A stretch of DNA of 64,000 nt from Planotetraspora sp. GP83 (GTDB lineage: Bacteria; Actinomycetota; Actinomycetes; Streptosporangiales; Streptosporangiaceae): contig NZ_JBGCBZ010000002.1 of NCBI RefSeq assembly GCF_041262585.1, positions 1 to 64,000 of the forward strand, given 5' to 3'. The position numbers and the translations under genes were made by a program. Below are positions 185 to 29,429 of this stretch, one piece after another. The notes beneath the pieces are model-generated. The model was not told the DNA's origin and did no database searches. It saw only the letters and a list, made by a program, of their open reading frames with translations. Position 1 is the first letter of the stretch. Each line of letters opens with the position of its first letter.

Positions 185-1249
185 TCACACGGTCTTCGTC
201 GCGCTCAAAATGCCCTGCAAGGGGAGGGCGTCCGGGGGCAGTTCGGAAGGATGCTGGGCGATCGCCTTCGTGACGGTGAAACCGCATTCTTCCAACCAGC
301 TCCGGAACGTCGACAGCTTCTGCGGCCCGCCCTGCCCTGTAGCGCAGCCGAGGAAGAAGCTCGGGTAGTAGTCGACGGTGCCGGATTCCTTGATGTCCTC
401 GGAATAGATCGGCACCAGGATGTGGACCTGGCCGCCGACCTCCAGCGAGTCCCGGACGCCGTTGAGGATCTTGAACACCTCGCTCTTGTCGAACATGTTG
501 AGGAAGTGTTTGATCAGCACGACGTCGAAGCCCTTGGGAACCTCCACGAAGACGTCACCGCCGATGAACGAGCATTGCTCGTCCACCCCGTGCTCCCGGA
601 AGTTCCTCAGGCACGCCTCTTCCCGGCCGGGCAGGTCGAACGTCGTCACCCGTAGCCCGGGCGACGGCTTCATCTTGAGGGTGTGGATCGCGCCGAGGCC
701 GGTGTTGCCCGCCAGGTCGAGAACCCGCGAACCCGCCGGGATGTCGACGTTGTCGAAGAACCAGGGGTCGATGCGGGCGGTGACCGAGTCCATCAGCCTC
801 GACCAGGATTCCCGCAGGTCCGCGTGCACGGTCATGGCCTCGTACAGGTCCCCGTCGAACCCGTAGAGCTCGCGAAGGCCGACGGGCTTGCCGGTCCGCA
901 CGCTCTCGGTGAGGTAGAACAGCTGCCGGAGCGTGGTGACCTTGATCTTGTCCATGAAGTCGAGCGGCCGCTTGAGGTCGATGTCGTCCAGCTCAGCGAG
1001 CGCGTCGAGGGAGTACGCCCCGGACGCCTCGTCGTAGGCGACGAAACCCTCCTTGACCGGCAGGAACAGCAGCTGCTCCACGGCCGCGGGCTTGGCCCCG
1101 GCAACGGCGCCGAGCTCGACCGCGGTCATGCCGGGGCCAGCCCGGAGCGCGTCGATGATGCCCAGTTCGAAACAGGACAGCAGGTTCATGAACCGCGCGG
1201 GTCCAACCATGTATTCACGGAATCGCGCGAGCGTGGCTTCTGCGGTCAT
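185..1249 (-). CDS. class I SAM-dependent O-methyltransferase (family 2; N-terminal dimerisation/winged-helix domain plus C-terminal methyltransferase fold)
   Basis: 354-aa ORF. SAM-binding motif LDLAGNTGLG and the typical COMT-like architecture. ATG start with no long upstream extension. Confidence 0.8.
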   Translation of the reverse strand: MTAEATLARFREYMVGPARFMNLLSCFELGIIDALRAGPGMTAVELGAVAGAKPAAVEQLLFLPVKEGFVAYDEASGAYSLDALAELDDIDLKRPLDFMDKIKVTTLRQLFYLTESVRTGKPVGLRELYGFDGDLYEAMTVHADLRESWSRLMDSVTARIDPWFFDNVDIPAGSRVLDLAGNTGLGAIHTLKMKPSPGLRVTTFDLPGREEACLRNFREHGVDEQCSFIGGDVFVEVPKGFDVVLIKHFLNMFDKSEVFKILNGVRDSLEVGGQVHILVPIYSEDIKESGTVDYYPSFFLGCATGQGGPQKLSTFRSWLEECGFTVTKAIAQHPSELPPDALPLQGILSATKTV

Positions 1250-1607
1250 GCACTAATCCCTTCGAGTTGGTTACGCTCCAGCGGCACATAACGCGAACCC
1301 GCTGCCACCCCGATGAGGAGCACTGTGGGGCACCGCGCCGCGTCGCCACGATCCGGCGGGGACCCGGGCGGTCGCGGCTACCCACTCTCCAGCATCGGCC
1401 ACGGGACTTGGCTGGGACTGTTCGGCGAGTTGGCGTCGACTTGGCGGCCGCCACGATGGTGCGGCGGCCGGGCGCACATCGCCGCAGGTCTACCGCTGTA
1501 GACGTATCGACAACGGTGATGTCCGACCATTCGCGGCCGACCGCCTCACCAGTACCAGAATGAGTCGGTCACGCGGAATGCCACCACAGAACACCAATTA
1601 TCAGGTT

Positions 1608-1640
1608 TCTTGACAACCGCCTGTGGCGAATATACGATCG
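1608..1640 (+). promoter_or_regulatory. candidate sigma70-like promoter (TTGACA, 17-bp spacer, TACGAT) facing the SARP gene
   Basis: cTTGACAaccgcctgtggcgaataTACGATcgg lies in the AT-richer divergent intergenic region between the OMT and the SARP gene. Confidence 0.3.
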
Positions 1641-1957
1641 GTCGGAGTTTATAGTTCACAATTCAAGAGTTCGCGATTCGAGATCAGCCACCGGGTGGCG
1701 GCCACTTGGCCATGGCTGTTCATATCACGCGACGCGCGGTGACGAGTAGTTGTCCGCGCCGCCTCCAGGAAAGCCGACTTGGTGCTGGTCCACCGGCACC
1801 CGCGACTCGATTGTCGCGCGTGATCTGGTGACCTCACCAGTGCCAAGGCGGCAGGAGAACGTGTCCATGGCTTGGCCATTCGCGTTGTCCGGAGAGGAGA
1901 ATCGACATCCGGATTCACCTTCTTGGGCCGCTGCGGATTTTCTGCGCTGACGGCGAG

Positions 1958-2728
1958 ATGTCGCCGGTCGCGCGGAAACCGCGGCAGATTCTCGCTCTGC
2001 TCCTGCTCAACTACTCGCGGGTCGTGCCCACGGCCGCGTTGATAGATGAGCTGTGGGACGGGTCCGCACCGAAAACGGCGCGCGCGGCCGTGCAGATCTA
2101 CGTCTTCGAACTGCGCAAGAGACTCGCCGAGGCCACCGGCCTCAGCATGGACGCCGTCGGCAACGAGATCTTGCGCAGGGCGCGCAACGGCTACGAGTTC
2201 GTCGCCGAACCGACCTGGTTCGACCTACGGTCCTTCCGTCAACGGGAGCAGACGGGGGTGGCCGCCGTGGCCGAGGGCGACCTGATCAAGGCCGCTCGGG
2301 ACTTCCACACGGCGCTGTTGATGTGGAGTGGTCCGGCGTTGGCGGGCGTCGAACCGGGGCCGAGCATCCGGGCCGAGGTGGCCGGGCTCGAGCAGTCGAG
2401 GGCCACGATGCTGAACCACCGCATCGGACTGGAGCTGAGGTTCGGCAGACACCGGGAGATCCTGGGCGAGCTGATAAACCTGGTGTCGCACGACAGGTTC
2501 AACGAGGACCTGCACGCGCAGTTCATCATCGCGCTGTACCGCTGCGGCTACCGCGCCTGCGCGCTGGAGGCGTTCCGCCGGCTGCGCGAGGACATGGTCG
2601 CCAGGTTCGGCTTGGAACCGTCCCCCAAGTTACAGAGGTACTACCACGCGATCCTCACCTCCGACCCGGGGCTGGACGAGATGCCGGTATGGCCGCTGCC
2701 CAGCGAACTCCCGGCGCTGCAGCCGTAG
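1958..2728 (+). CDS. SARP-family transcriptional activator (OmpR-type winged helix + BTAD). The true start is probably ~19 codons upstream of the first ATG.
   Basis: Protein ends in the BTAD motif ...HAQFIIALYRCGYRACALEAFRRLR. The conserved SARP N-terminus (RIDIRIHLLGPLRIFCADGE) is encoded in frame upstream of ATG 1958, after a GGAGAGGAGA Shine-Dalgarno-like run at 1891-1900. In-frame TTA at 2630-2632. Confidence 0.85.
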   Translation: MSPVARKPRQILALLLLNYSRVVPTAALIDELWDGSAPKTARAAVQIYVFELRKRLAEATGLSMDAVGNEILRRARNGYEFVAEPTWFDLRSFRQREQTGVAAVAEGDLIKAARDFHTALLMWSGPALAGVEPGPSIRAEVAGLEQSRATMLNHRIGLELRFGRHREILGELINLVSHDRFNEDLHAQFIIALYRCGYRACALEAFRRLREDMVARFGLEPSPKLQRYYHAILTSDPGLDEMPVWPLPSELPALQP

Positions 2729-2741
2729 CGCAAGCCCGCCG

Positions 2742-3551
2742 CTACACGGCTTTGGCATTGCCGTAGCCGCCTGCGGCGTCGACGGCCGCGGTGTCGGCGA
2801 CCCGCATGACGTGCCACAGCCGGGAGATCCGGTTGGACGGCGCTATGCCGAGTTCGTCCTGTATGTTCCGCCGCAGCCGGTCGAACACCTCGAGGGCCTG
2901 GGTCCGGTATCCCGAACGGTACAGGGCGATCATGAACTGGGCGTGTAGCTCTTCGTGATGCGGATGCCGGACGACGAGCCTGGCCAGCTCGCTCAGCATC
3001 TCGCGGTGCCTGCCCATGTCCAACTGCGTACCGAAGAACAGGACCAGTGTGTCCAATCTGGACTGGTCGAGCTCGGCAACGGCGGCCCGGAGCAGCCTGC
3101 CGTGGTCGACGTCCAGCAACGCCGGGCCCCGCCACAACCCCAGTGCCTCACTCAGCAGCCGGCTGGCGCCGAGGACGTCCCCGGTGTTCAGCAGTGTCCG
3201 CCCCAAGGACCGCAGCCGGTGGAACTCGGGCAGGTCGAAGGACGCCTTGCCGAGGTCCAACCGGTAGCCGCCGACGTGAGTTTGCAGCAGGTCTTGTGCG
3301 ACCAGGTCGCGCGGAACACCGAGCTTTCGAGCGAACTCCGTACGTAGGTAGAAGATATGGGTCTGCAGCGTGGTCGCGGCGCTCCGCGGCGGCGAGTTGT
3401 CCCACAATTCGGTGATCAGCGAACTAGTCGACACCCGGTGCGGTTCGTTGAGCAGCAACAAGGCAAGCAACTGCCGAGGCTTCCCGGTAATGTGCACCAG
3501 GTCTTCGCCGTCTCGCTGGATGGACAGCGAACCCAACACCTGAAATTCCAT
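2742..3551 (-). CDS. SARP-family transcriptional regulator (second copy, convergent with the first)
   Basis: Internal Met gives MEFQVLGSLSIQRDGEDL... followed by a BTAD (HAQFMIALYRSGYRTQALEVFDRLR). The ORF-track start at 3647 adds 32 unlikely residues. Confidence 0.8.
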   Translation of the reverse strand: MEFQVLGSLSIQRDGEDLVHITGKPRQLLALLLLNEPHRVSTSSLITELWDNSPPRSAATTLQTHIFYLRTEFARKLGVPRDLVAQDLLQTHVGGYRLDLGKASFDLPEFHRLRSLGRTLLNTGDVLGASRLLSEALGLWRGPALLDVDHGRLLRAAVAELDQSRLDTLVLFFGTQLDMGRHREMLSELARLVVRHPHHEELHAQFMIALYRSGYRTQALEVFDRLRRNIQDELGIAPSNRISRLWHVMRVADTAAVDAAGGYGNAKAV

Positions 3552-3687
3552 AAACCCACCCAGATGCACCGCGTCGAGAATACCCGCCGGACGGCGGCCG
3601 CGCCAGCGCTGTCGCTCTCCTGGAGAACGTGCGACGACGGGCTTCACGGCGATTACGGCAAATAGCGCAATGCCCGCGCCGCCGGGT

Positions 3688-4650
3688 TTACCGCGCGAAG
3701 ACCAAAGTGGTGGGCGACGGCGTCGAATGGAACGAGACGTCGTCGAAACCCGCCTCCGTGAGCCAGGCCCGGTAGTCGGCCTGCCGCCAAGTCCCGCCCT
3801 TCTTGCTCTTGAGCAGCATTTCCGAGGCGAACAGGAGCGGGAAGAACGGGCCGCCGCGGTCGTCGTCGACGACGTAGTCGCAGACGACCAGCGTGCCCCC
3901 GGGCTTGAGGGCTGCCCTGACCTTCGCGAAAATCGCGATGTTGTCCTCCGGCCCTTCCTGGTGCGCGACGTGCGAGTACACCGCGATGTCGTAGGCGGCG
4001 GTGCCGAACTCCACAGTGTGGAGGTCCCCGTCGACGCAGGTGAACCGGTCGGCCACCCGCCGCTCCTTCAGCAGCCTGTGAGCGATCGCGTTGATCGGCC
4101 CCCAGTCGAGCTGGGTCGAGCGGGCGGCGGGGTTGAGCTCGAGCCAGATGGCCGAGAAGATGCCCGAGCCGCCGCCGAGGTCGAGGATCGAGACCTCCCC
4201 GGCCTCCGCCAGCCCCAGCAGGTCGGCGGCGACCGTCGCCACCGGGACCGACTGCGCGGCGATGGCGGGGACCACGTCCTCCCAATGCGGGTTGTCGGCC
4301 ACCTCGGTCATGGCGTCCACCGGTCCCCCTGTGCGAAACACCTCGAGCAGGCTTCCCATCTTGTCCATCTGCCCCAGCTTGAGCTTGGCGTAGCCGCTCA
4401 AGCTGGCGGGCCTGCCGTCGACAAGGAACGCGGCCGCTTCTGCGGTGTTGCGGTAGCTCGCGCCGTGCAGCTCGACCAGGCCCAAGCCGACGAGCCCGTC
4501 GAGCAGGGTCTGCGCACCCCGCTTCGAGATCCCAGCTTTGGCGGCCAGCTGGTCCGCAGTGTCCACACCCGCGTCGAGGTGGGTGAAAAGCGAGTACTTC
4601 GCCGCCGAACCGAGGATGCCGGTGGCCCAGTAGCCGTTGGCGATCTCCAT
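3688..4650 (-). CDS. O-methyltransferase (COMT-like: dimerisation domain + Methyltransf_2)
   Basis: Sequence from the internal Met MEIANGYWATGILGSA... SAM motif ILDLGGGSGIFS. Start set at ATG (rc cat 4648-4650). Immediately downstream of the type III PKS on the same strand. Confidence 0.8.
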   Translation of the reverse strand: MEIANGYWATGILGSAAKYSLFTHLDAGVDTADQLAAKAGISKRGAQTLLDGLVGLGLVELHGASYRNTAEAAAFLVDGRPASLSGYAKLKLGQMDKMGSLLEVFRTGGPVDAMTEVADNPHWEDVVPAIAAQSVPVATVAADLLGLAEAGEVSILDLGGGSGIFSAIWLELNPAARSTQLDWGPINAIAHRLLKERRVADRFTCVDGDLHTVEFGTAAYDIAVYSHVAHQEGPEDNIAIFAKVRAALKPGGTLVVCDYVVDDDRGGPFFPLLFASEMLLKSKKGGTWRQADYRAWLTEAGFDDVSFHSTPSPTTLVFAR

Positions 4651-4748
4651 GATCCGGTCCGGCCTCGGTTGGTCGTTACTCACGCTGCCTCCTGAGTCCT
4701 GCGTGTAGGTGGCACGCGACCGCGCGCCGATGTTCCGGCGGCCGGCCC

Positions 4749-5846
4749 TCAGTGGGACGCCGATACGGCCTCGGGAATCCGCTCCATGCTCGCCGGCGCG
4801 TCCAGGGACCAACTACCCACCGCCATTTCCGCGGTGATGCCCGGTCCGAAACCGGCGATCACACCGGTGGCACCGGGTGTCATCGTGTCTTCCTCGAACA
4901 GCCTGCGCAGCGCGTCGAGCACCACAGCGCTGGCGATGTTGCCGTACTCGGTCAGCGTCGCCCAGCTGTGGCGGAACATGCTGTTGTCGACACCGAGGTA
5001 CTTGCTCAGGTCGGCCAGGATCCGCGGGCCGCCCGCGTGGATGACGTAGAAGTCGAGGTTGCCGACGTCCCAGCCGTGGTCGAGGGCGAGTTCGCGCAGC
5101 ACCGGGGCGAGCGGCTCCATCGTCCCGGGCACCCGGCGATCCAGTTGGAAGTGGAAGCCGGTGGAGCGCACGGCGTAGGAGATCCAGTTCTCGGTGTCCG
5201 GGATGATGTAGGAGGCGTTGCGCTCCAGCGCCACACCGTAGCCGCCGCTCCCCCGCACCACGGCGGCCGCGACCCCGTCTCCGAACAGCCCGTCGGACAG
5301 CAGGGACCCGACACCGTCGTCCTCGGGCTGGTAGCACAGCGAGCACAGCTCGCAGGAGACGATCAGGACGTTGTTGTCCGGATAGGCCATGCAGAAGTCG
5401 TGGGCGCGGTTGATCGCCGCGCCGCCCGCCGCGCAACCCAGCTGCGCGATGGGAATCTGCCGGGTGTTGTACCGGAATCCCATGTTGTTGATCAACCATG
5501 CGGTCTGCGACGGCATCGTGAACCCGGTGCACGACACGAAGATGATCGCGTCGATGTCCTGCGCCGTCAGCGAGGCGTTCGCCAGGGCCTCCTCGATGAC
5601 CACGGGGCACCTCTTCTGCGACTCCAACTCGAAGATGCGGTTGCGCTCCTCGAAGCCGGGGTGGCGCAGCGTATCCTCGATGGGCTGCACCAAATGCCGC
5701 TTCTGCACGCCCGTGTTCCTGATCAATCGGAGCGCCAACGGAAGCTGCGGCTTTCCGGCGTGTGCCTTCTCGGCGAATTTCAACGTGTCGTCCAGCGTGA
5801 TGACATATTCCGGCACACGCACCGACGGCTTGCATAACGTTGGCAT
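4749..5846 (-). CDS. rppA: type III polyketide synthase, RppA-like 1,3,6,8-tetrahydroxynaphthalene (THN) synthase
   Basis: 365 aa. Cys-His-Asn triad contexts are present (FVSCTGF, YVIHAGGP, GNIASA). Near-collinear with RppA as recalled from memory: MxTLCxPxVxVPEHVIT..., QIPIAQLGCAAGGAAINRAHDFC, GFGPGITAE. Confidence 0.9.
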   Translation of the reverse strand: MPTLCKPSVRVPEYVITLDDTLKFAEKAHAGKPQLPLALRLIRNTGVQKRHLVQPIEDTLRHPGFEERNRIFELESQKRCPVVIEEALANASLTAQDIDAIIFVSCTGFTMPSQTAWLINNMGFRYNTRQIPIAQLGCAAGGAAINRAHDFCMAYPDNNVLIVSCELCSLCYQPEDDGVGSLLSDGLFGDGVAAAVVRGSGGYGVALERNASYIIPDTENWISYAVRSTGFHFQLDRRVPGTMEPLAPVLRELALDHGWDVGNLDFYVIHAGGPRILADLSKYLGVDNSMFRHSWATLTEYGNIASAVVLDALRRLFEEDTMTPGATGVIAGFGPGITAEMAVGSWSLDAPASMERIPEAVSASH

Positions 5847-6000
5847 GTCTGGAGTCTCCTCCTGTAGAAGTCCACCCTCTGTGCGGAAAGCGCCCTTCCT
5901 GTACCCCCGGTAAAGCTGTCAGGTCACAACGCGCGGCATACGCCGCGCCGCGGATCGCCATCGGCTCGGAGATACACGTTCACTACCGTCGCCCATCTCG

Positions 6001-6030
6001 CTTGCCGTGGGCTTGGCGTGGACTTGGCAC
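6001..6030. promoter_or_regulatory. three direct repeats with 11-bp periodicity (CTTGCCGTGGG / CTTGGCGTGGA / CTTGGCAC) ~155-185 bp upstream of the rppA start; candidate SARP operator
   Basis: Seen directly. SARPs bind direct repeats spaced one helical turn apart near the -35 element of their target promoters. Confidence 0.3.
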
Positions 6031-6145: not shown

Positions 6146-6607
6146 CTATCCACTGTGGAGGGCGATGATCTCCTCCACCGTCCGGCGCAGCATGGCGATC
6201 CGGTCTTGACCGAGGTGCAGCACCCACTGCTGTTCGATGTCCCTGAGGATTCGCGCGGCGGCCGCCTGGCCCGCCACGCCCCGCTCGGTCAGCCGGATGA
6301 TCTTCGCCCGGCGGTCCTTCGGGTCGGTCGCCCGCTCGACGTAGCCGAGCCGCTCGAGTTCGTCGACCAGCTCGGCGATGGCCTGTTTCGTGAGCCCGGC
6401 GCGGTCGGCGAGCACGGTCAGCCGCGCCCCCTCCTCGTCGATGAACCGGAAGACGGAGCCGTGCCGGTACCGGATTCCCTCCAACCCCTCCTCGCCGAGC
6501 CGCTGGTGGAGCAACTCGATCGTGATGTCCTTGGCCCGTGTGAGCAGAGCGGGAAGCGGCGCCTGGCCCGCGTCCTCCTCGCCGCGCTCCCCGGATTGCG
6601 TCGTCAT
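6146..6607 (-). CDS. MarR-family transcriptional regulator
   Basis: Winged-helix region ...LTVLADRAGLTKQAIAELVDELERLGYVERATDPKDRRAKIIRLTERG. Start taken at ATG (rc cat 6605-6607) rather than the TTG at 6655. Confidence 0.8.
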   Translation of the reverse strand: MTTQSGERGEEDAGQAPLPALLTRAKDITIELLHQRLGEEGLEGIRYRHGSVFRFIDEEGARLTVLADRAGLTKQAIAELVDELERLGYVERATDPKDRRAKIIRLTERGVAGQAAAARILRDIEQQWVLHLGQDRIAMLRRTVEEIIALHSG

Positions 6608-6785: not shown

Positions 6786-8204
6786 ATGAGCCGTTTCGAC
6801 CACGAGGGAAACAAGGTCACCGGCGTCGACGCCGCGGCGATCGACGCTTTGGCCAAGCAGGTGAAGGGTCCGGTGCTCACCCCTGACAACGAGCAGTACG
6901 ACGCCGAACGCGCCGGGCACCAGACCACCCGCTGGCACCGGCCCGACGTGGTAGTGGGCGCGATCGGGCCCGCCGACGTGCAGGCGGCGGTGGCGTTCGC
7001 GCACAGCCACGGACTCCCGGTGGCGGTGCAAGGCACAGGGCACGCGCTCTCCGCCGTCGCCGCCGAGGGCGGAGTGCTGATCAACACCTCACGGATGGCG
7101 GATGTCCGGGTGAATACCGAGGCGGGCACCGTGTGGGTGGGCGCCGGGACGAAGTGGGACCAAGTGATCCACGAGGCGGCAGCGGCCGGGCTGGCCCCGC
7201 TGTCGGGCTCGGCCCCGGGCGTCGGCGTGGTCTCCTACACCCTCGGCGGCGGCTTGGGCCCGCTGTCGCGGCGGTACGGGTACGCCGCCGACCATGTGCG
7301 CAGCATCGACGTCGTCACGGCGGACAGCACGCTGCGGCACGTCACCGAGACCTCCGACCCGGACCTGTTCTGGGCGCTGCGCGGCGGCCGGGACAACTTC
7401 GGCGTGGTGACCGGCATCGAGGTCGACCTCATGCCGATCACGACGATCTACGGCGGCGGACTGTTCTTCGACGCCGGGTCGGCCGCCGAGGTCCTCGACA
7501 CCTACGCGCAATGGACGACCACCGTGCCCGACGAGATGACCTCGTCGGTCGCGCTGATCTCCTTCCCCGAGGTCCCGGCGCTCCCGGAGCCGTTGCGCGG
7601 CCGCTACGTCGTCCACATCCGTATCGCCTACGCCGCAGACACCCTCGGGGCGGGCGAGGGCCTGGTGGCGCCGCTGCGGGCGCTCAACCCGTTCATCGAC
7701 ACCGTCGCCGAGATACCCTTCGCCCAGGCCGGATCCATCCACAACGACCCGCCCTTCCCGGGGACCTTCGAGTCCGGCACCGCCCTGCTGGGCGAGTTCG
7801 ACTCCGCCGCGGTGCGCGCCCTGCTCGAGCACGTCGGCCCCCAAGCACCGGTGCCGCACGTCGTCGAACTGCGCCACCTCGGCGGGCAGCTCGCCCGTCC
7901 CCCCGCCGTCCCGAACGCCGTCGGCCATCGCAACGCGCGTTACGTGATCAACGTGGTCTCCCGGCTGGAGCGCGCCGAGATCACCGCCGTCCGGCCCGCG
8001 CACGAGCGCGTGTTCGCGGCGATCATGCCGTGGACCACCGGCGGCCGGGCGCTGAACTTCATGATCGGCGAGAATGACGCCAAGGACGTGGCCTCCGCGT
8101 ACGACCCCAAGGACTACCAGCGCCTGACCGAGGTCAAGGCCGTCTACGACCCCCAGAACATCTTCCGGCTCAACCACAACATCCCGCCCGCCGTCGCCGG
8201 GTGA
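6786..8204 (+). CDS. FAD-linked oxidase, berberine-bridge-enzyme-like (FAD_binding_4 + BBE C-terminal domain)
   Basis: Start at ATG 6786 after GGAGGTGGG. GxGH-type FAD-binding region (VAVQGTGHALS) and the C-terminal BBE signature YDPQNIFRLNHNIPP. Confidence 0.8.
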   Translation: MSRFDHEGNKVTGVDAAAIDALAKQVKGPVLTPDNEQYDAERAGHQTTRWHRPDVVVGAIGPADVQAAVAFAHSHGLPVAVQGTGHALSAVAAEGGVLINTSRMADVRVNTEAGTVWVGAGTKWDQVIHEAAAAGLAPLSGSAPGVGVVSYTLGGGLGPLSRRYGYAADHVRSIDVVTADSTLRHVTETSDPDLFWALRGGRDNFGVVTGIEVDLMPITTIYGGGLFFDAGSAAEVLDTYAQWTTTVPDEMTSSVALISFPEVPALPEPLRGRYVVHIRIAYAADTLGAGEGLVAPLRALNPFIDTVAEIPFAQAGSIHNDPPFPGTFESGTALLGEFDSAAVRALLEHVGPQAPVPHVVELRHLGGQLARPPAVPNAVGHRNARYVINVVSRLERAEITAVRPAHERVFAAIMPWTTGGRALNFMIGENDAKDVASAYDPKDYQRLTEVKAVYDPQNIFRLNHNIPPAVAG

Positions 8205-10022: not shown

Positions 10023-12734
10023 TCAAATGATGTAGTCGCCCTCCCTCGCGGCCATGAGACGGCTCAGCTCACCGCGCGTGGTGATGCCGAGCTTGGGGAA
10101 GATGCGCGACAGGTGCGTGCTGACCGTGCGGGGCGAGACGAACAGCCGCTGGCCGATGTCGCGGTTGGTCAGGCCGTCCGCGACGAGCTGCGCGATCTGG
10201 AGCTCCTGGGCGGTGAGCCGGTCGCGGGTGTCGTGCTTGCGGCGGATCCGCTCGCCGCTCGCGCGCAGCTCGCGCAGCGCGCGCTCCGACCAGGGCACCG
10301 CGCCGAGCGCGTCGAACGCCTCAGCCGCCGCGCGTAGCGGCGCCCTGGCCTCGGCGGCACGGCGCTGGCGGCGCAGCCACGCGCCCCACGCGTGCCGCAG
10401 CCGCGCCCGTTCGAACGGCCAGCCGACCAGGTCCTCGCGCAGCGCCTGCGTGAACAGCTCCTCGGCGGTCTCGTCGGGCGCGGTGACGGCCCTGACGTAG
10501 GCGAGCGCCACGTGCCCGACCGGCGACCCGCTCTCCTCGATCACCGGGGCCAGCTCGTCTGCGACCGCGCGCAGCTCCTCCTGCCGTCCGCTGAGCAACG
10601 CCGCCTCCGCCAGGTGCGGCAGCGCCCACAGCCGCATGTACTGGCTGTAGCTGACTTCGCTGGGGTCGAAGATCGGGCGCAGCGCGTCCCAGGCCGCGCC
10701 GAAGGTCCCGTCGGCCAGCTCGGCGGCTCCGCGCGCGAGCTGCACCAGGGCCAGCATCGGGTGCGCGCCCGCCGACAGGAACGCCCGTTCGGCCTGCGCG
10801 GCGAGGTCGCGCGTGACGTCCGTCGCGCCGCGCAGCGCGTGGATCTCGGCGGATACTGCGTCCGCGGTGAGCACCCACTGCGGCTGCCTGGTCTCCACGG
10901 CCAGCGCCCTGGCCTCGGCGGCGGCGACGACCCCGAGCCGGGTGTCGGCGAGTCGCGCCGCCGACGTCGTCTGCCCGACGAGCGCCTGCGCGAGCGCCCC
11001 GAACGGCCCCCGCGCCCGCATCCCCGCGATCGCCTCCGCGTACAGCCGCGCGCCCAGCGGGAACGCCCCGACCGCGTTCGCCGCGTTGCCCAGCAGTTGC
11101 AGGTTGTGCGGGCTGACCCAGCTCGCCGTGCTCAGCGCGTCGAGCCGGGCCAGCGACTGCCTGCCGCGCTCCACCGGGGCGATCACCGCGAGCGACGCGA
11201 CGATCTGCGGGTCGTCCGGAGGCACGGCCAGCCGTTCGATCGCGGCGAGCAGGGGCGCGCGGACCTCCCGCGTGGGGTTGGAAAAGAACCAGCGCGTGCT
11301 GACGCTGGCCAGCCAGCGCAGCGCGAACGCCGAGCCGTCACGTGCGCGCATCTCGTCGAGGAACCCGGGGAGGTCGGACAGCCGGTCCACGCCGGTCCAC
11401 ACGAAATGCAGGGTGATGTCGCGGAAGTAGGTGAGCCTGGACCGGTCGACCGGGGCGAGGTCGGCGTCCTCCGCGCGGCCGACGAGGCGTTCCAGGGCGG
11501 CGCGGTCGCCGAGGTCGAAGGCCATCGCGGCGGCGTCGATCAGCCGCGCGCCCCGGCGGGCCGGGTCGGCGCTGAGGTAGGCGGCGCGCTCCATCGCCTC
11601 CAGCGCAAGCCCCGACGCGCCCCTGCCGTGGGCGCGCATCGCGGCGGCGGCGAGCCCGGCTGCGACGTCGTCGTCGTGGGACGTCGCGGCGGCCGCCCGG
11701 TGCCAGATCCTGCGGTCGTCGTCATCGGGCAGGGCGGCGGCGAGCGCGGCGTGTGCGTCGCGTAACAGGTCGGCCCCGGCCGCCTGGACGATCGCCGACC
11801 TGATCAGGGGGTGCCGGAACCTGACGCGCACGGCGTCGGCCACGACCAGCCCCGCCCGGGTCGCGGGGGCCAGCGCGGCCGCCTCGATCGGCGCGCCCGC
11901 CAGCAGGGACGCGACCCGTGTGTTCTCCTCGATCGCGTCGTGCTCGTTGACGGCGGCGATGAGAGCCAGGGTCCTGGTGTCGGCGGGCAGCGCGGCGAGC
12001 GCCTGGGCGAACGCGCGTTCCAGCCGCTCCGTCAGAGGCAGCCTGCTCGACGCGAGCATCTCCTGGTCCTGCCGGGACGCCAGCGCGGCGAACTCCATCA
12101 GCGCGAGCGGGTTGCCCGCCGCCTCCGCCAGCACGCGGGCGCGCAGCGCGGTGCCCAGGTCGGGCGCGACCCTCGCCAGCAGCTCCGCCGCCGCCTGGTG
12201 GGTCAGCGGCGGCACGGTCAGCGCGGGCAGCCCCGACGCGGCGAGCCTGGCCTGGGAGTCGGCGTCGTCGCGCAGGGTCGCCAGCAGCACGACGGCGTCC
12301 GAGCGCAGCCGGCGGCCGACGAACGCGAGCGCCTCCCAGCTCGGCCCGTCCAACCAGTGCGCGTCCTCGACGGCGAGCACCACGGGCGTGTCGCCCGCCA
12401 GCGCGGACAGCCGGTGCAGCACGGACATCGCGGTGCGCAGCGGCCCGCCGTCGAGGTCACCGGGCTCGAGCCCGGTCCCCGCGAGCAGCCTGCGCAGACC
12501 CTCGTACGGGACCTGGGCTTCGGCGGGCACGCCGGTCACGGTCAGCACGCGCGCGCCCCTGGCCTCGGCCTCGGCCGTGGCGGCCCCGAGCAGCGCCGAC
12601 TTGCCGACGCCCGCCGCGCCGCTCAACACGAGCGCCCCGCCGCCTTCCTTCGCGCCGTCCAACAGTGCCAGCAGGTCGCGCAGTTCGGCGTCTCGTCCCA
12701 CGAGGGCGTGCAGTGTCACGAGGACGATGCTCAC
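10023..12734 (-). CDS. LAL-family regulator (N-terminal AAA/Walker NTPase + C-terminal LuxR-type HTH)
   Basis: 903 aa. Walker A GAAGVGKSALL. C-terminal LTAQELQIAQLVADGLTNRDIGQRLFVSPRTVSTHLSRIFPKLGITTRGEL. Confidence 0.85.
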   Translation of the reverse strand: MSIVLVTLHALVGRDAELRDLLALLDGAKEGGGALVLSGAAGVGKSALLGAATAEAEARGARVLTVTGVPAEAQVPYEGLRRLLAGTGLEPGDLDGGPLRTAMSVLHRLSALAGDTPVVLAVEDAHWLDGPSWEALAFVGRRLRSDAVVLLATLRDDADSQARLAASGLPALTVPPLTHQAAAELLARVAPDLGTALRARVLAEAAGNPLALMEFAALASRQDQEMLASSRLPLTERLERAFAQALAALPADTRTLALIAAVNEHDAIEENTRVASLLAGAPIEAAALAPATRAGLVVADAVRVRFRHPLIRSAIVQAAGADLLRDAHAALAAALPDDDDRRIWHRAAAATSHDDDVAAGLAAAAMRAHGRGASGLALEAMERAAYLSADPARRGARLIDAAAMAFDLGDRAALERLVGRAEDADLAPVDRSRLTYFRDITLHFVWTGVDRLSDLPGFLDEMRARDGSAFALRWLASVSTRWFFSNPTREVRAPLLAAIERLAVPPDDPQIVASLAVIAPVERGRQSLARLDALSTASWVSPHNLQLLGNAANAVGAFPLGARLYAEAIAGMRARGPFGALAQALVGQTTSAARLADTRLGVVAAAEARALAVETRQPQWVLTADAVSAEIHALRGATDVTRDLAAQAERAFLSAGAHPMLALVQLARGAAELADGTFGAAWDALRPIFDPSEVSYSQYMRLWALPHLAEAALLSGRQEELRAVADELAPVIEESGSPVGHVALAYVRAVTAPDETAEELFTQALREDLVGWPFERARLRHAWGAWLRRQRRAAEARAPLRAAAEAFDALGAVPWSERALRELRASGERIRRKHDTRDRLTAQELQIAQLVADGLTNRDIGQRLFVSPRTVSTHLSRIFPKLGITTRGELSRLMAAREGDYII

Positions 12735-21640: not shown

Positions 21641-24600
21641 TCAATGAGCCGATCCGTCAGGCAGGGCCGCACGTTCGATCGCCTTCTCGACGCCCCCTAC
21701 GCGGTCGGCGAGGAGACCGATGGCGCCGACGGCCCGGGAGACGGGGTCGTCTCCGTCCCCGCCCAGGGCCTTGGAGCGGAGGTAGCCGGATTTCACCTCC
21801 GCCCAGCGCCTGGCCTGGTCGGCGGTCATCGTGCCGCGCAACTCCGCCAGCTTGAGCAGGTTGGCCTCGGCCCCTGAGGCGAGAGTCTGGGCCTCCCCCA
21901 GGTAGTGGTCGTCGATCACCGCGTGGAGTTCGCCGTCGTTCATGACCGGAGCTATCCGCTCGGCCAGCTTGTTCATGTTCCGGTACGACCCCTGCAGCTG
22001 GAAGGGGGGCTCCGTGCGAGAGGCATCGGACTGGGCGGCCGACGCGATGTACGCCTCGTTGATCGCCAGCACGACTTCCTGGACCCGCAGAAGCTTGTCC
22101 AGCACCGCGAGGATCTGGTCGAGCTCGACTCTGGAATAGGGGTGGCTCAGCTGGTCGGCGCGCACCCCCGAATCACCTCGTGCCAGCCGTACCAGCAGTT
22201 CGACGTCGGCGCGGTCCCGCGTGGAGAGCGGCGCGAGAACGGGATTGGAAGTCAGCGCGTTCTCTATGTAACTCAGCGCGAACAGTTCCTCCTTGCCGGA
22301 CAGCACGTCGCCGAGGTTCCACACGTCGGCACGGTTGGCCAGCATGTCCGGGATGCGGAACCGCCCGCCCGACTCGGTGTACGGGTTGCCCGCCATGCAG
22401 ACGGCGAAGCGCTTGCCGCGCAGATCGTAGGTCCGGGTCCGGCCGTTCCAGACGCCCTCCATCCGGCGCTGCGCGTCGCACATCGAGATGAACTTCTGCA
22501 GCAGCTCGGGAGAGGTGTGCTGGATGTCGTCCAGATAGAGCAGCACGTTGTTCCCGCATTCCAGCGCGAACGAGACCTTCTCGATCTCCTGTCGCGCGGT
22601 GGCGTCCGGCGCCTGCGCCGGATCGAGCGAGGTGATCGCGTGGCCGAGTGACGGGCCGTTGACCTTGACGAACACCAGACCCAGCCGGCTCGCGACGTAC
22701 TCCATGAGCGTCGTCTTGCCGTACCCCGGCGGGGAGATGAGCAGCAGGAGCCCCATCTGATCGGTGCGCTTGGCCTCCCCCGCCGCGCCGAGCTGCTTGG
22801 CCAGGTTGTCACCGATCAGCGGCAGGTACACCTCGTCCAGCAGCCGGTTGCGCACGAACGCGCTCATCACCTTGGGCTGGTATTCGCCGAGCCGCAGCCG
22901 CGCCCGCTCGCGCTCGATGAGTTCGTTACGCCGCCGCTGGTAGGCCCGGTAGGCGGGCACCCGCTCGGTCCGGAACCGCCGGGTGCGGGTGAGCGTCTCG
23001 TCGAGGCGCAGCCCGAGGCTCCGCCCGGACAGCCGGGGATGCGCGCCCAGCAGACGCTCGACGGTGGTCGTCAGCGCCGCCGACGAGTCGTACCGCGGGA
23101 CATCACACAGCTGTACGGCGATCGCCTCCGCGAGGTCTCCGGCCTGTACAGCTCCCGCTTCCGCGTTCTGTTCGCCGGATTCGCGCAGGAAGGACGTGCG
23201 CAGGAAAGCCGCCAGCCAGGCCTCCGCCAGCTGATACCGGACTCCCAGGGCTCCCGGGACTCCCGGGACTCCCGCGGCGTCCGGATCATCGTCCAGGGCG
23301 CGCAGATCGTCCTCGAACTCCTTGAGGGAACCGCCGAGTGCCGCTCGAAACCTCCCCAGGATGCCTCGGGCGGCGGCGCTGGTGACGAAGCCGGAGGGCG
23401 AGCTCGACAGCTCCTCGAAGAGGTACTCCCCCGCGAGGCCGGTCTCACCGCCCGGCAGTCCGGCATCCCGCAGGAAACCGGCCATGGCCGACGCCAGTTC
23501 GGCTCGGATCTCGCCGATCGCGTCCATCCGAGGCTGCGAGAGCCGGGCCACCTCCGCCCCATGCCCGAACGCGCCCCGGGCCCGGGCCAGTGATCGGGCC
23601 CGCGTGGTCCAGGCCCTGCGGGCGGCCTCCGCCGTACCGAACGTCCAGAAGAGCTGTGCCGCGGCCCGCGCTTCGGGCGGGAAGCGCAGCAGACCGGCTC
23701 CCGTGTGGAGGCGGAGCAGGGCATCGAGGATCGCGGCGGCGTCCTGGTCATGGACGCCGCGCTCGTAACCCTCGTCGTAACGCGTCTCCGCGACGCGGCG
23801 CACCACCCCGAGCAGACCGCCGTCGGCGAGCGCGGCCGCGTGCAGAGCGTCGAGAGACAGTCCCGCGCCGCTGACGGCATCGGCCCCCGCGAGGCCGCCG
23901 GCCTCCGCTTCGGCGAGGATCGAAGCGGCGAGATGTTCCGCCCGATACACGTCGGCGGACTCGGAGACGAGCAACTGGTCCCAGAACGGCCGGGTCGCCT
24001 CGAACGACTCCTCGTCGACAGGCGACCGGTAGTCGGTCCCGGTGATGGCGAACGCCATTCGCCCGTCCAGGGGAACGAGCGTGAGGTCGAGCGGCTGGGT
24101 GTTGACGGCGAACCGGTGACGGCCGAGGCGGATGGTCGTCCCGGCGTCGGAGTAGAGGTCGACGCGGTCGCGCAGGGCACGGCCCGCGTCCAGGCGGGCC
24201 GACTTGATCCGGCCCTCCAGCTCTTCGGCCCGGACCTGGTCACCCAGCGAGCGCAGCTCATCGGCGACCGTTCGCAGCTTGGCCACCATGGGATCGGAGG
24301 CGAAGTAGGTGTTCACCTCCTCGATCGACTCGAGGCTCACAACACGCCGTCGCACGCTGCTCAGGATCCGGTCGGCGGAGACCGCCAGCCTGTCGGCCCG
24401 GCGCGCGCGCTCGTCCAGCAGCGCCTGCTTGCGTGAGGAGAACGCCTCGTAGACGTCCTCCCGCTTCTGCTCCAGCCGGGCCACGAGGTCGTCGAACTCC
24501 CCGAAGCGAGACCCCAGGTTCTCCAGTTGGAGCAGCAGTCGGCCCAACTGCTCGTCGCAGTGCTCGGGGGTGTCCGCCACCGCGAGCGCGCCGGTTATGG

Positions 24601-26707
24601 TCTGGCCGAGCACGGCGAACTCGGCGGCGAAGCCGGCCCTTCCTTCGGCCGCGAGCAGCTCCCCGCGTTTCGCCGCGAGAGTGGCCCGGGCCCGGTTGAT
24701 CCCGCCGAGCACCTCCCCGATCCGTTCCAGAATCGCGGTGCGCACGGTGACGTCGGTGATCTCCAGGGTGCCGACGACCTCGGTCAGGATCGCCAGCCCC
24801 TCGCCCTGCTCCACCAGCCGCTCCGAGATCGGCGCGGACTCCGCGACGGTCCTGATGGCCTGGGCGTCCGAGGTGAGCCGTTCCACGTCGGCGTGGTAGC
24901 CGGTGAACGCGTCGTCACGCTGGAGGAACGCGACAGCGCGCTGCGCGGCCGCGGCGAGCTCGGTCTCGAGGTGGCCGGCCAGCGCGTCGACCCGCTCGGT
25001 GTCGATGTAGCGCAGCTCCCGCAACGTCGCGAGGCGTCCCTGCGCACGCCGCAGCTCAGCGAGCTGCCGCACCCACGCGTCAGACGTCATGGGCGACTCG
25101 CCGCGCGCCTGCCGTACCAGCGACTCGATCCGCGCGGCGGCCTCGTCCAGCTCGGACGCCGCCTGGCGGGTGAGCGACTGGACCTTCTCGAACTCGTCCA
25201 GCACCTGCTCGGCGGTCGCCCTGACGTCGGCGAGCGGCGAGCGGAGATCGTGGTCGTTCAGCCAGTGGTAGTGGTCGAAAGCCCGGACGCATGCCGCGAT
25301 CAGCGCCTCGAAGACCGGCACCGACGGCGCCATCTCCTCGACCATGCGGACGACGGACAGGCAGTCCGAGACCCCGCGCACCAGCTCGGCGTTGCCGATG
25401 CGCTCCAGCGGCCCGGCGCCCACCGGCTGGGCCGCGGCGAAGGTGTCCGAGACGTACGGCGTCTGCCATACCTGCATGGGATGGACGCGGGTCGGCTCGT
25501 CACCGGTCGCCCGGAACACCACGAGGGTTCCGTCGTCGAACAGCGAGTAGCCGTGGCACGGGATCGGGTTGGCGACCTCCTTGCGGATCACGTTGTACGG
25601 CAGCAGCAGCGTCCGGCCCTCCGCCCTCGCGTGGAAGACGTAGAGCACGTCCTCCCCGTTGGGTGAGCGGATGACGCGCTCGAACTCCAGGCTGGCGACG
25701 TCCGTGTCGAAGGTCTTCGCCGTACCGGTGGCGAGGTAGTAGCCACCGGGGAAGATGATGCCCTGGTCTTCGGGTAGCCGCTGGCAGGCCTGTCCGATGC
25801 CGTCCAGCCGGACCACGCCTCTGGTCCTGGTGTTGAACACCAGGTGCCGCCACTCGGCCTCGTTGTAGGGCCGGATGCGGAGCAGGATCAGCGGACCGAC
25901 CCTGGCATAGTGGACGTCCGCGTCCGCCAGGCTCTGCAGCGGCTCGACGACGGGCTCACGGTAGATCCCCTCACCGGTCTCGGTGTTGTTCTCGACCTTG
26001 ACGGTGAGGTCGCCGCCCACGGTCTCGACGAACACCTCGTCGCCGATCGAGATGTGCGGGTGACGGCCGAGGACGTGGTCGTCCCTGGTGGTCGCCGTCC
26101 ACTCGAAGTCGTGCGACGGCGGGAAGACGTGGTCACGCTCGCCCCGGTTGTCCAGGTAGCTGACGGAGCCATCGGTTCCGACGCTCCATCGCAGCACTCG
26201 GATGTCCTGCGGGCCGGTCTGGAAGACGGCCAGCAGCCGGCCTTCCAGCCGGCGCAGCTGCGTCAGCCGGGTTTCCTTGTAGTACCGGTACAGTTCGCCG
26301 AAGTCCCGCTCGAACTGCTGGTCGTCGAGCAGCAGGGGGGCGTCGTCGAACCGGAAGGCGTCGCCGTCGCGGATGAAACGGTGACACGAGAACACGTCCC
26401 GGACGGTCGTCTCGGACTTCAGCCCGATGAACACGTTGTAGCCGAACAGCATGACCCCGCCCACCGACACGATGTCGCGGGGCACGCAGTTGTTCTCGGT
26501 GCGGATGCGCTCGGTGCCGACCAGCCGGAGCTCGGCGCCGCCGAAGACCTCCAGGCGCCGGGCGTTGAGCGCCTCGGCCCGGCGGGCGAGCTCCTTGGCC
26601 TGCTCGGACAGCCGGGACCGGAGCACCTCATAGGTGCCCGCGTCGAGCCCCGCCCGCGTCTCGATGAGCTGTGTCTCGGTGAGCTGTGTCTCGATGGCCT
26701 CTGTCAC
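21641..26707 (-). CDS. giant (1688 aa) protein with a C-terminal MoxR/AAA_5-type ATPase domain and a long uncharacterised, coiled-coil-rich N-terminal region
   Basis: GTG start 7 nt after the flotillin stop. Walker A LLLISPPGYGKTTL, Walker B NNVLLYLDDIQH, then a MoxR-like sensor region RTRTYDLRGKRFAVCMAGNP. I did not recognise any domain in the first ~1150 residues. Confidence 0.85.
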   Translation of the reverse strand: MTEAIETQLTETQLIETRAGLDAGTYEVLRSRLSEQAKELARRAEALNARRLEVFGGAELRLVGTERIRTENNCVPRDIVSVGGVMLFGYNVFIGLKSETTVRDVFSCHRFIRDGDAFRFDDAPLLLDDQQFERDFGELYRYYKETRLTQLRRLEGRLLAVFQTGPQDIRVLRWSVGTDGSVSYLDNRGERDHVFPPSHDFEWTATTRDDHVLGRHPHISIGDEVFVETVGGDLTVKVENNTETGEGIYREPVVEPLQSLADADVHYARVGPLILLRIRPYNEAEWRHLVFNTRTRGVVRLDGIGQACQRLPEDQGIIFPGGYYLATGTAKTFDTDVASLEFERVIRSPNGEDVLYVFHARAEGRTLLLPYNVIRKEVANPIPCHGYSLFDDGTLVVFRATGDEPTRVHPMQVWQTPYVSDTFAAAQPVGAGPLERIGNAELVRGVSDCLSVVRMVEEMAPSVPVFEALIAACVRAFDHYHWLNDHDLRSPLADVRATAEQVLDEFEKVQSLTRQAASELDEAAARIESLVRQARGESPMTSDAWVRQLAELRRAQGRLATLRELRYIDTERVDALAGHLETELAAAAQRAVAFLQRDDAFTGYHADVERLTSDAQAIRTVAESAPISERLVEQGEGLAILTEVVGTLEITDVTVRTAILERIGEVLGGINRARATLAAKRGELLAAEGRAGFAAEFAVLGQTITGALAVADTPEHCDEQLGRLLLQLENLGSRFGEFDDLVARLEQKREDVYEAFSSRKQALLDERARRADRLAVSADRILSSVRRRVVSLESIEEVNTYFASDPMVAKLRTVADELRSLGDQVRAEELEGRIKSARLDAGRALRDRVDLYSDAGTTIRLGRHRFAVNTQPLDLTLVPLDGRMAFAITGTDYRSPVDEESFEATRPFWDQLLVSESADVYRAEHLAASILAEAEAGGLAGADAVSGAGLSLDALHAAALADGGLLGVVRRVAETRYDEGYERGVHDQDAAAILDALLRLHTGAGLLRFPPEARAAAQLFWTFGTAEAARRAWTTRARSLARARGAFGHGAEVARLSQPRMDAIGEIRAELASAMAGFLRDAGLPGGETGLAGEYLFEELSSSPSGFVTSAAARGILGRFRAALGGSLKEFEDDLRALDDDPDAAGVPGVPGALGVRYQLAEAWLAAFLRTSFLRESGEQNAEAGAVQAGDLAEAIAVQLCDVPRYDSSAALTTTVERLLGAHPRLSGRSLGLRLDETLTRTRRFRTERVPAYRAYQRRRNELIERERARLRLGEYQPKVMSAFVRNRLLDEVYLPLIGDNLAKQLGAAGEAKRTDQMGLLLLISPPGYGKTTLMEYVASRLGLVFVKVNGPSLGHAITSLDPAQAPDATARQEIEKVSFALECGNNVLLYLDDIQHTSPELLQKFISMCDAQRRMEGVWNGRTRTYDLRGKRFAVCMAGNPYTESGGRFRIPDMLANRADVWNLGDVLSGKEELFALSYIENALTSNPVLAPLSTRDRADVELLVRLARGDSGVRADQLSHPYSRVELDQILAVLDKLLRVQEVVLAINEAYIASAAQSDASRTEPPFQLQGSYRNMNKLAERIAPVMNDGELHAVIDDHYLGEAQTLASGAEANLLKLAELRGTMTADQARRWAEVKSGYLRSKALGGDGDDPVSRAVGAIGLLADRVGGVEKAIERAALPDGSAH

Positions 26708-26714
26708 GGGCGCG

Positions 26715-28790: not shown

Positions 28791-28802
28791 CCAAGTCCCC
28801 TG

Positions 28803-29429
28803 TCAGTGGAGGTCGTAGGGCATGACCCAGAAGAACTCGCCCTCTGGGTCGTAGTCGAAGATGAGGGCGGAGCTGCCGGCGCGGAGATCGTCGGCTCCCG
28901 TCTGGCGCACCTGGACGAGGGCCGAGGAGCCGTCCTCCGCCGTGACCTCGGCCTGGCCGAAATCGGGTCCGACCCGTCCAGTACGGATGACGCACATGCG
29001 GCCGACGAAGTCGCTCCGCGACGGCGCGGGCACGGCCGGGAACAGCGCGCGGATCGGCAGCACCAACAGGCGGGTGCACAGCCAGCCGGCGAGAAGCGCG
29101 ACCAGAAGGACAGCGGTCCGTGCGGCCGTCCCCTCCACCAGCGCCGCGCCGGCGAGGCTGACGAACCAGGAGATCACCACCATGAGCGAGATCACGACGC
29201 TGGCCGGCACTCCGCGCAGCCCGATGCCGGTCAGGAGATCGTCGGGCAACTCCAACCCCAGGCCCCCCAGCGGCACGAGCAGCCAGTAGCCGATGACGAC
29301 CAGCAGCATGAAGCTGAACAGGACCGCCGGGAACCCGAGCGCCGCGCCCACGAAATCCCGCATTGACTCCCACCGTTTTGCGAGCGTCTCCCCCGAGACG
29401 TAACGCATTATTGCCCGATAGCCAGGCAA
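28803..29429 (-). CDS. NfeD-like membrane protein (TM helices + C-terminal OB-fold), the usual operon partner of SPFH proteins. Alternative ATG start at 29408.
   Basis: 3-4 TM helices followed by a soluble beta-rich tail ...GRMCVIRTGRVGPDFGQAEVTAEDGSSALVQVRQ.... 12-nt gap to the flotillin gene. Confidence 0.7.
   Translation of the reverse strand: MPGYRAIMRYVSGETLAKRWESMRDFVGAALGFPAVLFSFMLLVVIGYWLLVPLGGLGLELPDDLLTGIGLRGVPASVVISLMVVISWFVSLAGAALVEGTAARTAVLLVALLAGWLCTRLLVLPIRALFPAVPAPSRSDFVGRMCVIRTGRVGPDFGQAEVTAEDGSSALVQVRQTGADDLRAGSSALIFDYDPEGEFFWVMPYDLH

Follow-up and report, generated by a model that had tools for sequence, protein, structure and literature searches.

The window analyzed here, a 64-kb stretch of DNA from Planotetraspora sp. 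GP83, contains a small gene for a regulator of the SARP family (SARP1) with a single in-frame TTA leucine codon. A preliminary description of this stretch had taken the codon as a signature of bldA-dependent growth-phase control. That reading is weakened by the taxonomy of the host, by the absence of TTA from this site in all nine orthologues compared, by the local frequency of TTA and by the TTA-free SARPs of Streptomyces prasinus. Based on comparison with related loci, we consider it probable, though well short of certain, that the SARP1 TTA arose as a lineage-specific synonymous G-to-A change from TTG, reflecting neutral TTG/TTA turnover with no bldA switch. The codon and the gene as we propose it are located as follows.

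2630-2632, forward strand: in-frame TTA (Leu) codon of SARP1, codon 242 when counted from the proposed ATC start and codon 225 when counted from the ATG at 1958.
1907-2728, forward strand: proposed SARP1 coding sequence, 273 amino acids with an ATC start, supported by Pfam, by a match to AfsR and EmbR from residue 3 and by the family start M-x-x-x-x-LGPL.

The bases and the reading frame of the codon were confirmed. TTA at 2630-2632 is a sense codon in an open reading frame (ORF) that is closed by TAG at 2726-2728, and the local peptide reads ..PSPK-L-QRY.., as the preliminary description had stated. The identification of the product as a SARP was also borne out: it combines a winged-helix DNA-binding domain (Pfam Trans_reg_C, 32.2 bits with a cutoff of 26.2) with a BTAD located C-terminal to it (128.6 bits, profile positions 1-146 of 146 covered). 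A profile of the SARP1 orthogroup aligned over both domains with the structures of AfsR from Streptomyces coelicolor (PDB 8HVR, 8K60, 8JKE) and EmbR from Mycobacterium tuberculosis (PDB 2FEZ), with E values of 1e-35 to 1e-34. This alignment was used in place of an AlphaFold model of SARP1, which was set aside and in which the DNA-binding domain had a pLDDT of ~45-60. SARP1 shares both domains and the N-terminal LGP strand region with these two proteins, but it is a minimal version of 273 amino acids, without the NB-ARC and TPR extension of AfsR and without the FHA domain of EmbR.

Alignment with homologues agreed with the frame, as the leucine encoded by TTA (L242) is invariant in 23 orthologues and aligns with a leucine of AfsR. 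The gene had originally been placed at 1958-2728; the stop was correct, whereas the start is probably ATC 1907 and not ATG 1958. The number given to the codon, 225, accordingly holds when counted from ATG 1958, and from the likely ATC start it is codon 242 of 273. The TTA lies at 88% of the length of SARP1 and is not 5'-proximal. We inspected the surrounding sequence and found nothing pointing to a sequencing error at the TTA site.

The host belongs to the genus Planotetraspora (Streptosporangiaceae, Streptosporangiales), outside the Streptomyces/Kitasatospora lineage. Translation from ATG 1958 gives a 256-amino-acid product with 100% identity to a protein of Planotetraspora sp. GP83 (WP_370017856.1 / MEZ0071240.1), and the window therefore does not come from a streptomycete. 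According to Chandra and Chater, the interplay between bldA and adpA arose solely in the Streptomyces/Kitasatospora line, bldA has an established developmental role only in Streptomyces and its nearest relatives, and a role beyond the Streptomycineae is doubtful (PMC4255298). Outside the Streptomycineae, TTA codons are not biased towards the 5' end and are sometimes found in genes associated with growth (PMC4255298). A literature search for work on bldA or TTA in Streptosporangiaceae found nothing specific, and a search of the window for tRNA genes found none. The preliminary description had named a host without bldA-type TTA avoidance as a reason to abandon its own reading, and this is largely the situation encountered here, in a member of the Streptosporangiales with TTA in 16-24% of the window genes.

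Retention of a TTA codon among orthologues, as for the TTA of adpA, is a sign of selection. For SARP1, we compared orthologous loci from Microbispora sp. (L001, 86% identity), Sphaerimonospora cavernae (L005, 85%), S. prasinus (L007 and L008, 67%), Actinokineospora terrae (L003), Saccharothrix deserti (L002), an Actinomycetota metagenome-assembled genome (MAG; L004), an Actinophytocola MAG (L010), and two metagenomic or Logan contigs with SARP1 orthologues (L006 and L009). A scan of metagenomes with the orthologue alignment yielded one further true orthologue (L011) and 79 distant SARPs, which are not usable for site conservation and served instead as controls for the start-codon position and for the general frequency of TTA in SARPs.

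None of nine orthologues (L001-L007, L009 and L010) had TTA at the SARP1 site. The aligned codon was TTG in Microbispora and Sphaerimonospora, and CTG in Saccharothrix, Actinokineospora and the Actinomycetota MAG. The step from TTG to TTA is one G-to-A transition, and it is one among 19-30 synonymous differences that distinguish SARP1 from its two nearest orthologues. Counting TTA anywhere in the gene, 2 of 10 orthologues including the window were positive, at different positions (the other being the Actinomycetota MAG, at codon 3), while about 1.6 would be expected according to our estimate (0.6 per 1000 × 273 codons × 10 genes). In S. prasinus, a genuine bldA-type host, both SARPs of the cluster copy are without TTA. 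The reverse flip was found in the BBE-type oxidase gene of the same cluster, in which a leucine codon (..IDA-L-AKQ.., about 6846-6848) is TTG in the window and TTA in Microbispora, Sphaerimonospora and S. prasinus (L007); this illustrates apparent TTG/TTA turnover inside the cluster. Such a pattern is in line with the report that most TTA codons are poorly conserved (PMC10327506).

To place the codon against its background, we counted codons in 42 window genes that were called by the G+C content of third codon positions (GC3) and checked with Pfam. These genes contained 10 TTA among 16,713 codons (0.60 per 1000), spread over 10 of the 42 genes. When the first ten codons of each ORF were skipped, the count was 7 TTA among 16,876 codons, or 0.41 per 1000, and 7 of 43 genes were TTA-bearing. 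The TTA-bearing share of the window genes was therefore 16-24%, a value that reflects accessory genes alone (64 kb of the genome), compared with about 2% in S. coelicolor. In the literature, 147 TTA-containing genes are reported for S. coelicolor (PMC2000904) and a mean of 177 for Streptomyces genomes, while in 39% of the genomes of other actinobacteria TTA-bearing ORFs are significantly more numerous than in Streptomyces (PMC10327506).

The rarity that had been attributed to TTA was upheld only in part. No sense codon in the window (G+C = 68.75%) is rarer than TTA, but the depletion of TTA was no stronger than that of comparable codons, with ratios of observed to expected counts, based on position-specific base composition, of 0.36 for TTA, 0.33 for CTA and 0.41 for GTA. 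The related loci that we fetched had 0.4-1.0 TTA per 1000 codons, except for one short metagenomic contig with four callable genes, in which zero were counted. Among unrelated SARP-family genes from soil metagenomes, 25 of 73 contained at least one TTA. From the local rates, we estimate that a gene of 273 codons has a probability of about 10-15% of containing at least one TTA here, and the SARP1 TTA is within chance expectation.

A gate of the bldA type would make SARP1 depend, through its UUA codon, on a late-accumulating tRNA-Leu(UAA), and would restrict the activator and its polyketide to stationary phase or development. The closest known system is actII-ORF4 of S. coelicolor, a SARP gene for which the paradigm is proven and whose TTA confers bldA dependence on actinorhodin production (PMC2000904). 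The two SARPs have in common a small size, a location inside a gene cluster, an OmpR-type DNA-binding domain, a BTAD and a single in-frame TTA. The TTA of SARP1 moreover falls on an invariant, structurally important leucine in the last BTAD helix, no sense codon of the window is rarer, and a second TTA is present at codon 4 of the type III polyketide synthase (PKS) gene of the cluster. In contrast to actII-ORF4, however, SARP1 resides in a member of the Streptosporangiaceae, and a developmental role of bldA is not established outside the Streptomycineae (PMC4255298). Its TTA is near the 3' end, is unconserved among orthologues including the SARPs of S. prasinus, and occurs in a background in which the per-gene frequency of TTA is about tenfold that of S. 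coelicolor. Weighing these points, we regard bldA-type gating of SARP1 as unlikely.

Several observations nevertheless weigh against simple neutral turnover. TTA is, as noted, the rarest sense codon in the window, and decoding could limit SARP1 if tRNA-Leu(UAA) is scarce. Accessory genes, which are the sole content of the window, tend to be rich in TTA. In the PKS gene, the TTA at codon 4 (MPT-L-CKP) is common to three genera of Streptosporangiaceae (the window, Microbispora and Sphaerimonospora), with TTG in Actinokineospora and ATT in the Actinomycetota MAG, and a 5'-proximal site such as this is typical for TTA codons of Streptomyces. At least one TTA was also present somewhere in every cluster copy examined, which could mean selection at the level of the cluster with a drifting position. 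In such a case of "expression space" selection, at least one TTA would be kept in the SARP, PKS or oxidase gene, and the SARP1 TTA would replace the oxidase TTA of the relatives. Consistent with this, one or more core-gene TTA codons were found in 9 of 9 examined cluster copies, and the oxidase leucine and the SARP1 leucine show opposite states in the window and in Microbispora, Sphaerimonospora and S. prasinus. However, by our estimate ~80% of copies are expected to have a TTA by chance (~0.6 per 1000 over ~2,700 codons), and the chance of finding 9 of 9, about 0.13, is too high for significance; moreover, the phylogenetic relatedness of the loci means that they are not independent. We therefore judge cluster-level selection to be improbable, a step below bldA gating. 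An artefact deserves very little credence, whether sequencing or assembly introduced the A at 2632 in place of G or the sequenced isolate carries a private variant. The codon is one base away from the TTG of the two nearest orthologues, and the sequence is recorded from a single genome, but the difference is one of the 19-30 ordinary synonymous differences, the site shows no local sign of low quality, and consensus error rates are far below the observed divergence.

Under neutral turnover, which we prefer, the TTA would have arisen by a single transition from the TTG of the nearest relatives, in the setting of a moderately GC-rich, horizontally mobile cluster. The resulting UUA codon would at most slightly slow decoding, as a modest rare-codon effect. 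If expression of the SARP is translationally limited, it would more likely be held at initiation, through discrimination by initiation factor 3 (IF3), than at the UUA codon.

The 5' end of the gene is informative in this respect. Comparison of the orthologues indicates that SARP1 likely starts at ATC 1907 and encodes 273 amino acids, in which case the annotated gene lacks 17 amino acids. The following elements are involved.

1907-1909, forward strand: proposed non-canonical ATC start codon, based on the orthologue alignment and on the lack of a canonical in-frame alternative.
1891-1899, forward strand: Shine-Dalgarno sequence GGAGAGGAG, which ends 7 nucleotides upstream of ATC 1907 and is kept in all ten loci whatever the start codon.
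1958-1960, forward strand: internal ATG, the annotated start (NCBI), probably Met18; the residue is variable in orthologues (M, V, L, T, A or I).

The frame upstream of ATG 1958 encodes a conserved SARP N-terminus, (I)RIHLLGPLRIFCADGE, and no in-frame ATG, GTG or TTG was found between the stop at 1829-1831 and ATG 1958. In both the window and the Sphaerimonospora locus, the in-frame stretch from the upstream stop to the conserved LGPL motif has no canonical start, while many orthologues begin with M-x-x-x-x-LGPL exactly at the position equivalent to 1907. Across ten loci, this position was occupied by ATC in the window, Microbispora, Actinokineospora and Sphaerimonospora, and by ATT in the two MAGs (L004 and L010) and in L006 and L009, so that 8 of 10 loci including the window had ATC or ATT; Saccharothrix had TTG and S. 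prasinus (L007) had ATG. At the same position in 73 unrelated SARPs, a canonical start was found in 61, ATC in 3 and ATT in 0. Automatic gene calls truncate SARP1 genes (256 amino acids in the NCBI annotation) or extend them.

The alternative that SARP1 truly starts at ATG 1958 would make it an N-terminally truncated, possibly non-functional regulator, and translational control would be moot. This ATG is the sole canonical start in the ORF, and the corresponding codon is the NCBI call in Planotetraspora, Sphaerimonospora and Actinokineospora. Against it, the protein sequence encoded by the 17 upstream codons is conserved, with synonymous changes between genera, and it aligns with the structured N-terminus of AfsR and EmbR. 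The position of Met18 is variable, and no ribosome-binding site precedes ATG 1958, whereas a conserved one precedes ATC 1907. We therefore consider a start at ATG 1958 rather unlikely, albeit not negligible.

Other candidates in this region were examined and rejected. An upstream ATG or GTG is not supported as the true start, as its frame relative to the SARP differs among the window, Microbispora and Sphaerimonospora. ATC 1901 is less likely than ATC 1907, because 1907 is the position at which S. prasinus has its ATG and Saccharothrix its TTG in an alignment anchored on LGPL. Inspection by eye showed that a small hairpin (CCGGA...UCCGG), which surrounds the ribosome-binding site and the start, is not conserved in L006. 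An upstream ORF in the +1 frame, from GTG 1861 or ATG 1867 to TGA 1948-1950, overlaps the ribosome-binding site and ATC of SARP1, but neither its length nor its frame is conserved. A GGCAGGAGAACGTG block upstream is conserved in Microbispora and Sphaerimonospora, where the +1-frame ORF differs in length and frame.

The proposed non-canonical start suggests control at translation initiation. In Streptomyces, infC (ATC start) and sigR (GTC start) are repressed by IF3 and are routinely mis-annotated (PMC5472188). Like these genes, SARP1 would have a near-cognate start codon that is kept in other species, lies behind a good ribosome-binding site and has been mis-annotated to a nearby canonical codon (PMC5472188). 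Unlike them, its use of ATC/ATT is deduced from comparative sequence, and about half of the orthogroup has ATG or TTG, so the feature is clade-specific. We tentatively raise the possibility, for which the odds are clearly less than even, that a large SARP1 clade of this widespread type III PKS cluster (in Streptosporangiaceae, Pseudonocardiaceae and soil metagenomes) carries a conserved AUC/AUU start, behind a strong ribosome-binding site, that keeps the activator repressed by IF3 and would release it upon changes in IF3 or the ribosome, with the UUA of Planotetraspora layered on top. A literature search for non-canonical starts in SARPs found nothing specific.

Upstream of the coding sequence, the promoter region of SARP1 has been altered in the window.

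1610-1638, forward strand: promoter-like site, TTGACA-17 nucleotides-TACGAT, with the -35 hexamer kept in orthologues.
1618-1805, forward strand: window-specific insertion of about 188 bp with 60% GC, detected by alignment with Microbispora, Sphaerimonospora and Actinokineospora.

The insertion splits the conserved -35 TTGACA (1610) from the ancestral -10 region of SARP1 and brings a new TACGAT 17 nucleotides after the -35. The idea that it is a repeated mobile element was rejected, as neither the window nor the fetched loci contained a second copy.

SARP1 is embedded in a gene cluster, and its description as a cluster-situated pathway gene proved sound: at least eight loci, belonging to several genera, share the gene order, and heptamer repeats with the 11-bp period that is typical for SARP boxes are present in two promoters of the cluster. 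The conserved order comprises one or more O-methyltransferase genes, SARP1, the convergent SARP2, a further O-methyltransferase, the type III PKS, a MarR-family regulator and the divergent BBE-type oxidase, and was found in Microbispora, Sphaerimonospora, Actinokineospora, Actinophytocola, S. prasinus and metagenomic contigs. In the window, the neighbors of SARP1, all assigned by Pfam, and the repeats are as follows.

185-1249, reverse strand: O-methyltransferase OMT1, divergent from SARP1.
1405-1444, forward strand: four heptamer direct repeats with an 11-bp period (GACTTGG, GACTGTT, GAGTTGG, GACTTGG), a candidate SARP box ~155-195 bp upstream of the OMT1 start.
2742-3551, reverse strand: SARP2, a small SARP convergent with SARP1, with an ATG start and without TTA.
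3688-4683, reverse strand: O-methyltransferase OMT2, downstream of the PKS, with a GTG start.
4749-5846, reverse strand: type III PKS, with TTA at codon 4 (5835-5837).
6000-6028, forward strand: three heptamer direct repeats with an 11-bp period, (G/A)CTTG(C/G)C, a candidate SARP box ~155-180 bp upstream of the type III PKS start.
6146-6607, reverse strand: MarR-family regulator; the TTA of its longest ORF is upstream of the likely ATG and hence outside the gene.
6786-8204, forward strand: FAD-linked BBE-type oxidase, related to BagK/FevA1 but below the cutoff of that family.

The stop codons of SARP1 and SARP2 are 13 bp apart, and a terminator scan of 1200-3800 found none in the gap between the two genes. 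The repeat block upstream of OMT1 is kept in Microbispora and Sphaerimonospora, with related triplets in Actinokineospora and the two MAGs. The triplet upstream of the PKS is kept in eight loci (the window, L001, L003-L007 and L010, of which L007 is S. prasinus), and because its repeats are kept while the spacers between them vary, it can be regarded as a phylogenetic footprint. The SARPs would bind the 11-bp-spaced heptamers upstream of the OMT1 and PKS operons and activate both.

Among named NCBIfam families, those closest to the two SARPs, the MarR regulator and the FAD oxidase are BagI/FevR, BagL/FevM and BagK/FevA1 of the bagremycin and ferroverdin pathways. The resemblance of the regulators and the oxidase to these proteins is distant, with scores far below the family cutoffs (493 compared with 800 bits for the oxidase), and the PKS likewise scores far under the DpgA cutoff. 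Because a type III PKS and O-methyltransferases are present, the cluster represents a pathway distinct from those of bagremycin and ferroverdin.

Some further observations concern regulators elsewhere. Outside the PKS cluster, the window encodes a LuxR-type regulator of 903 amino acids (10023-12734, reverse strand) that contains an AAA ATPase domain and whose gene has TTA at codon 324, as well as a 622-amino-acid AfsR-like SARP with an NB-ARC domain (36118-37986, reverse strand). The region 21641-29429 (reverse strand) encodes a 1688-amino-acid protein with DUF3686, DUF7902 and AAA ATPase domains, followed by proteins of 691 amino acids (TTA at codon 625) and 208 amino acids that have no Pfam match; this region may be an uncharacterised operon. 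Among the soil metagenome contigs (68-74% GC), one SARP-like family (L048, L056, L060, L069, L070 and L075, also L035), of 443 amino acids where complete, has TTA at codons 9 and 63 in six distinct sequences, codon 9 being the second leucine of LGPL. This family provides a truly conserved pair of TTA codons in SARP-type regulators.

A TTA codon in a SARP gene is a textbook motif, but it is unsuitable here for predicting bldA-gated production, because the host is not a streptomycete, the site is unconserved and the codon fits neutral turnover. Predictions of "silent, bldA-limited" clusters based on TTA should be restricted to taxa in which TTA is truly exceptional and should be accompanied by a check of its conservation. 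The more interesting feature of SARP1 is its conserved ATC/ATT start, together with the mis-annotation that results from it, rather than its TTA. In practical terms, expressing the annotated 256-amino-acid SARP1 to awaken the cluster would produce a protein without the first 17 residues of its DNA-binding domain. If true, the ATC/ATT start would add a pathway-specific regulator of secondary metabolism to the genes under start-codon control by IF3, so far represented by sigR and infC.

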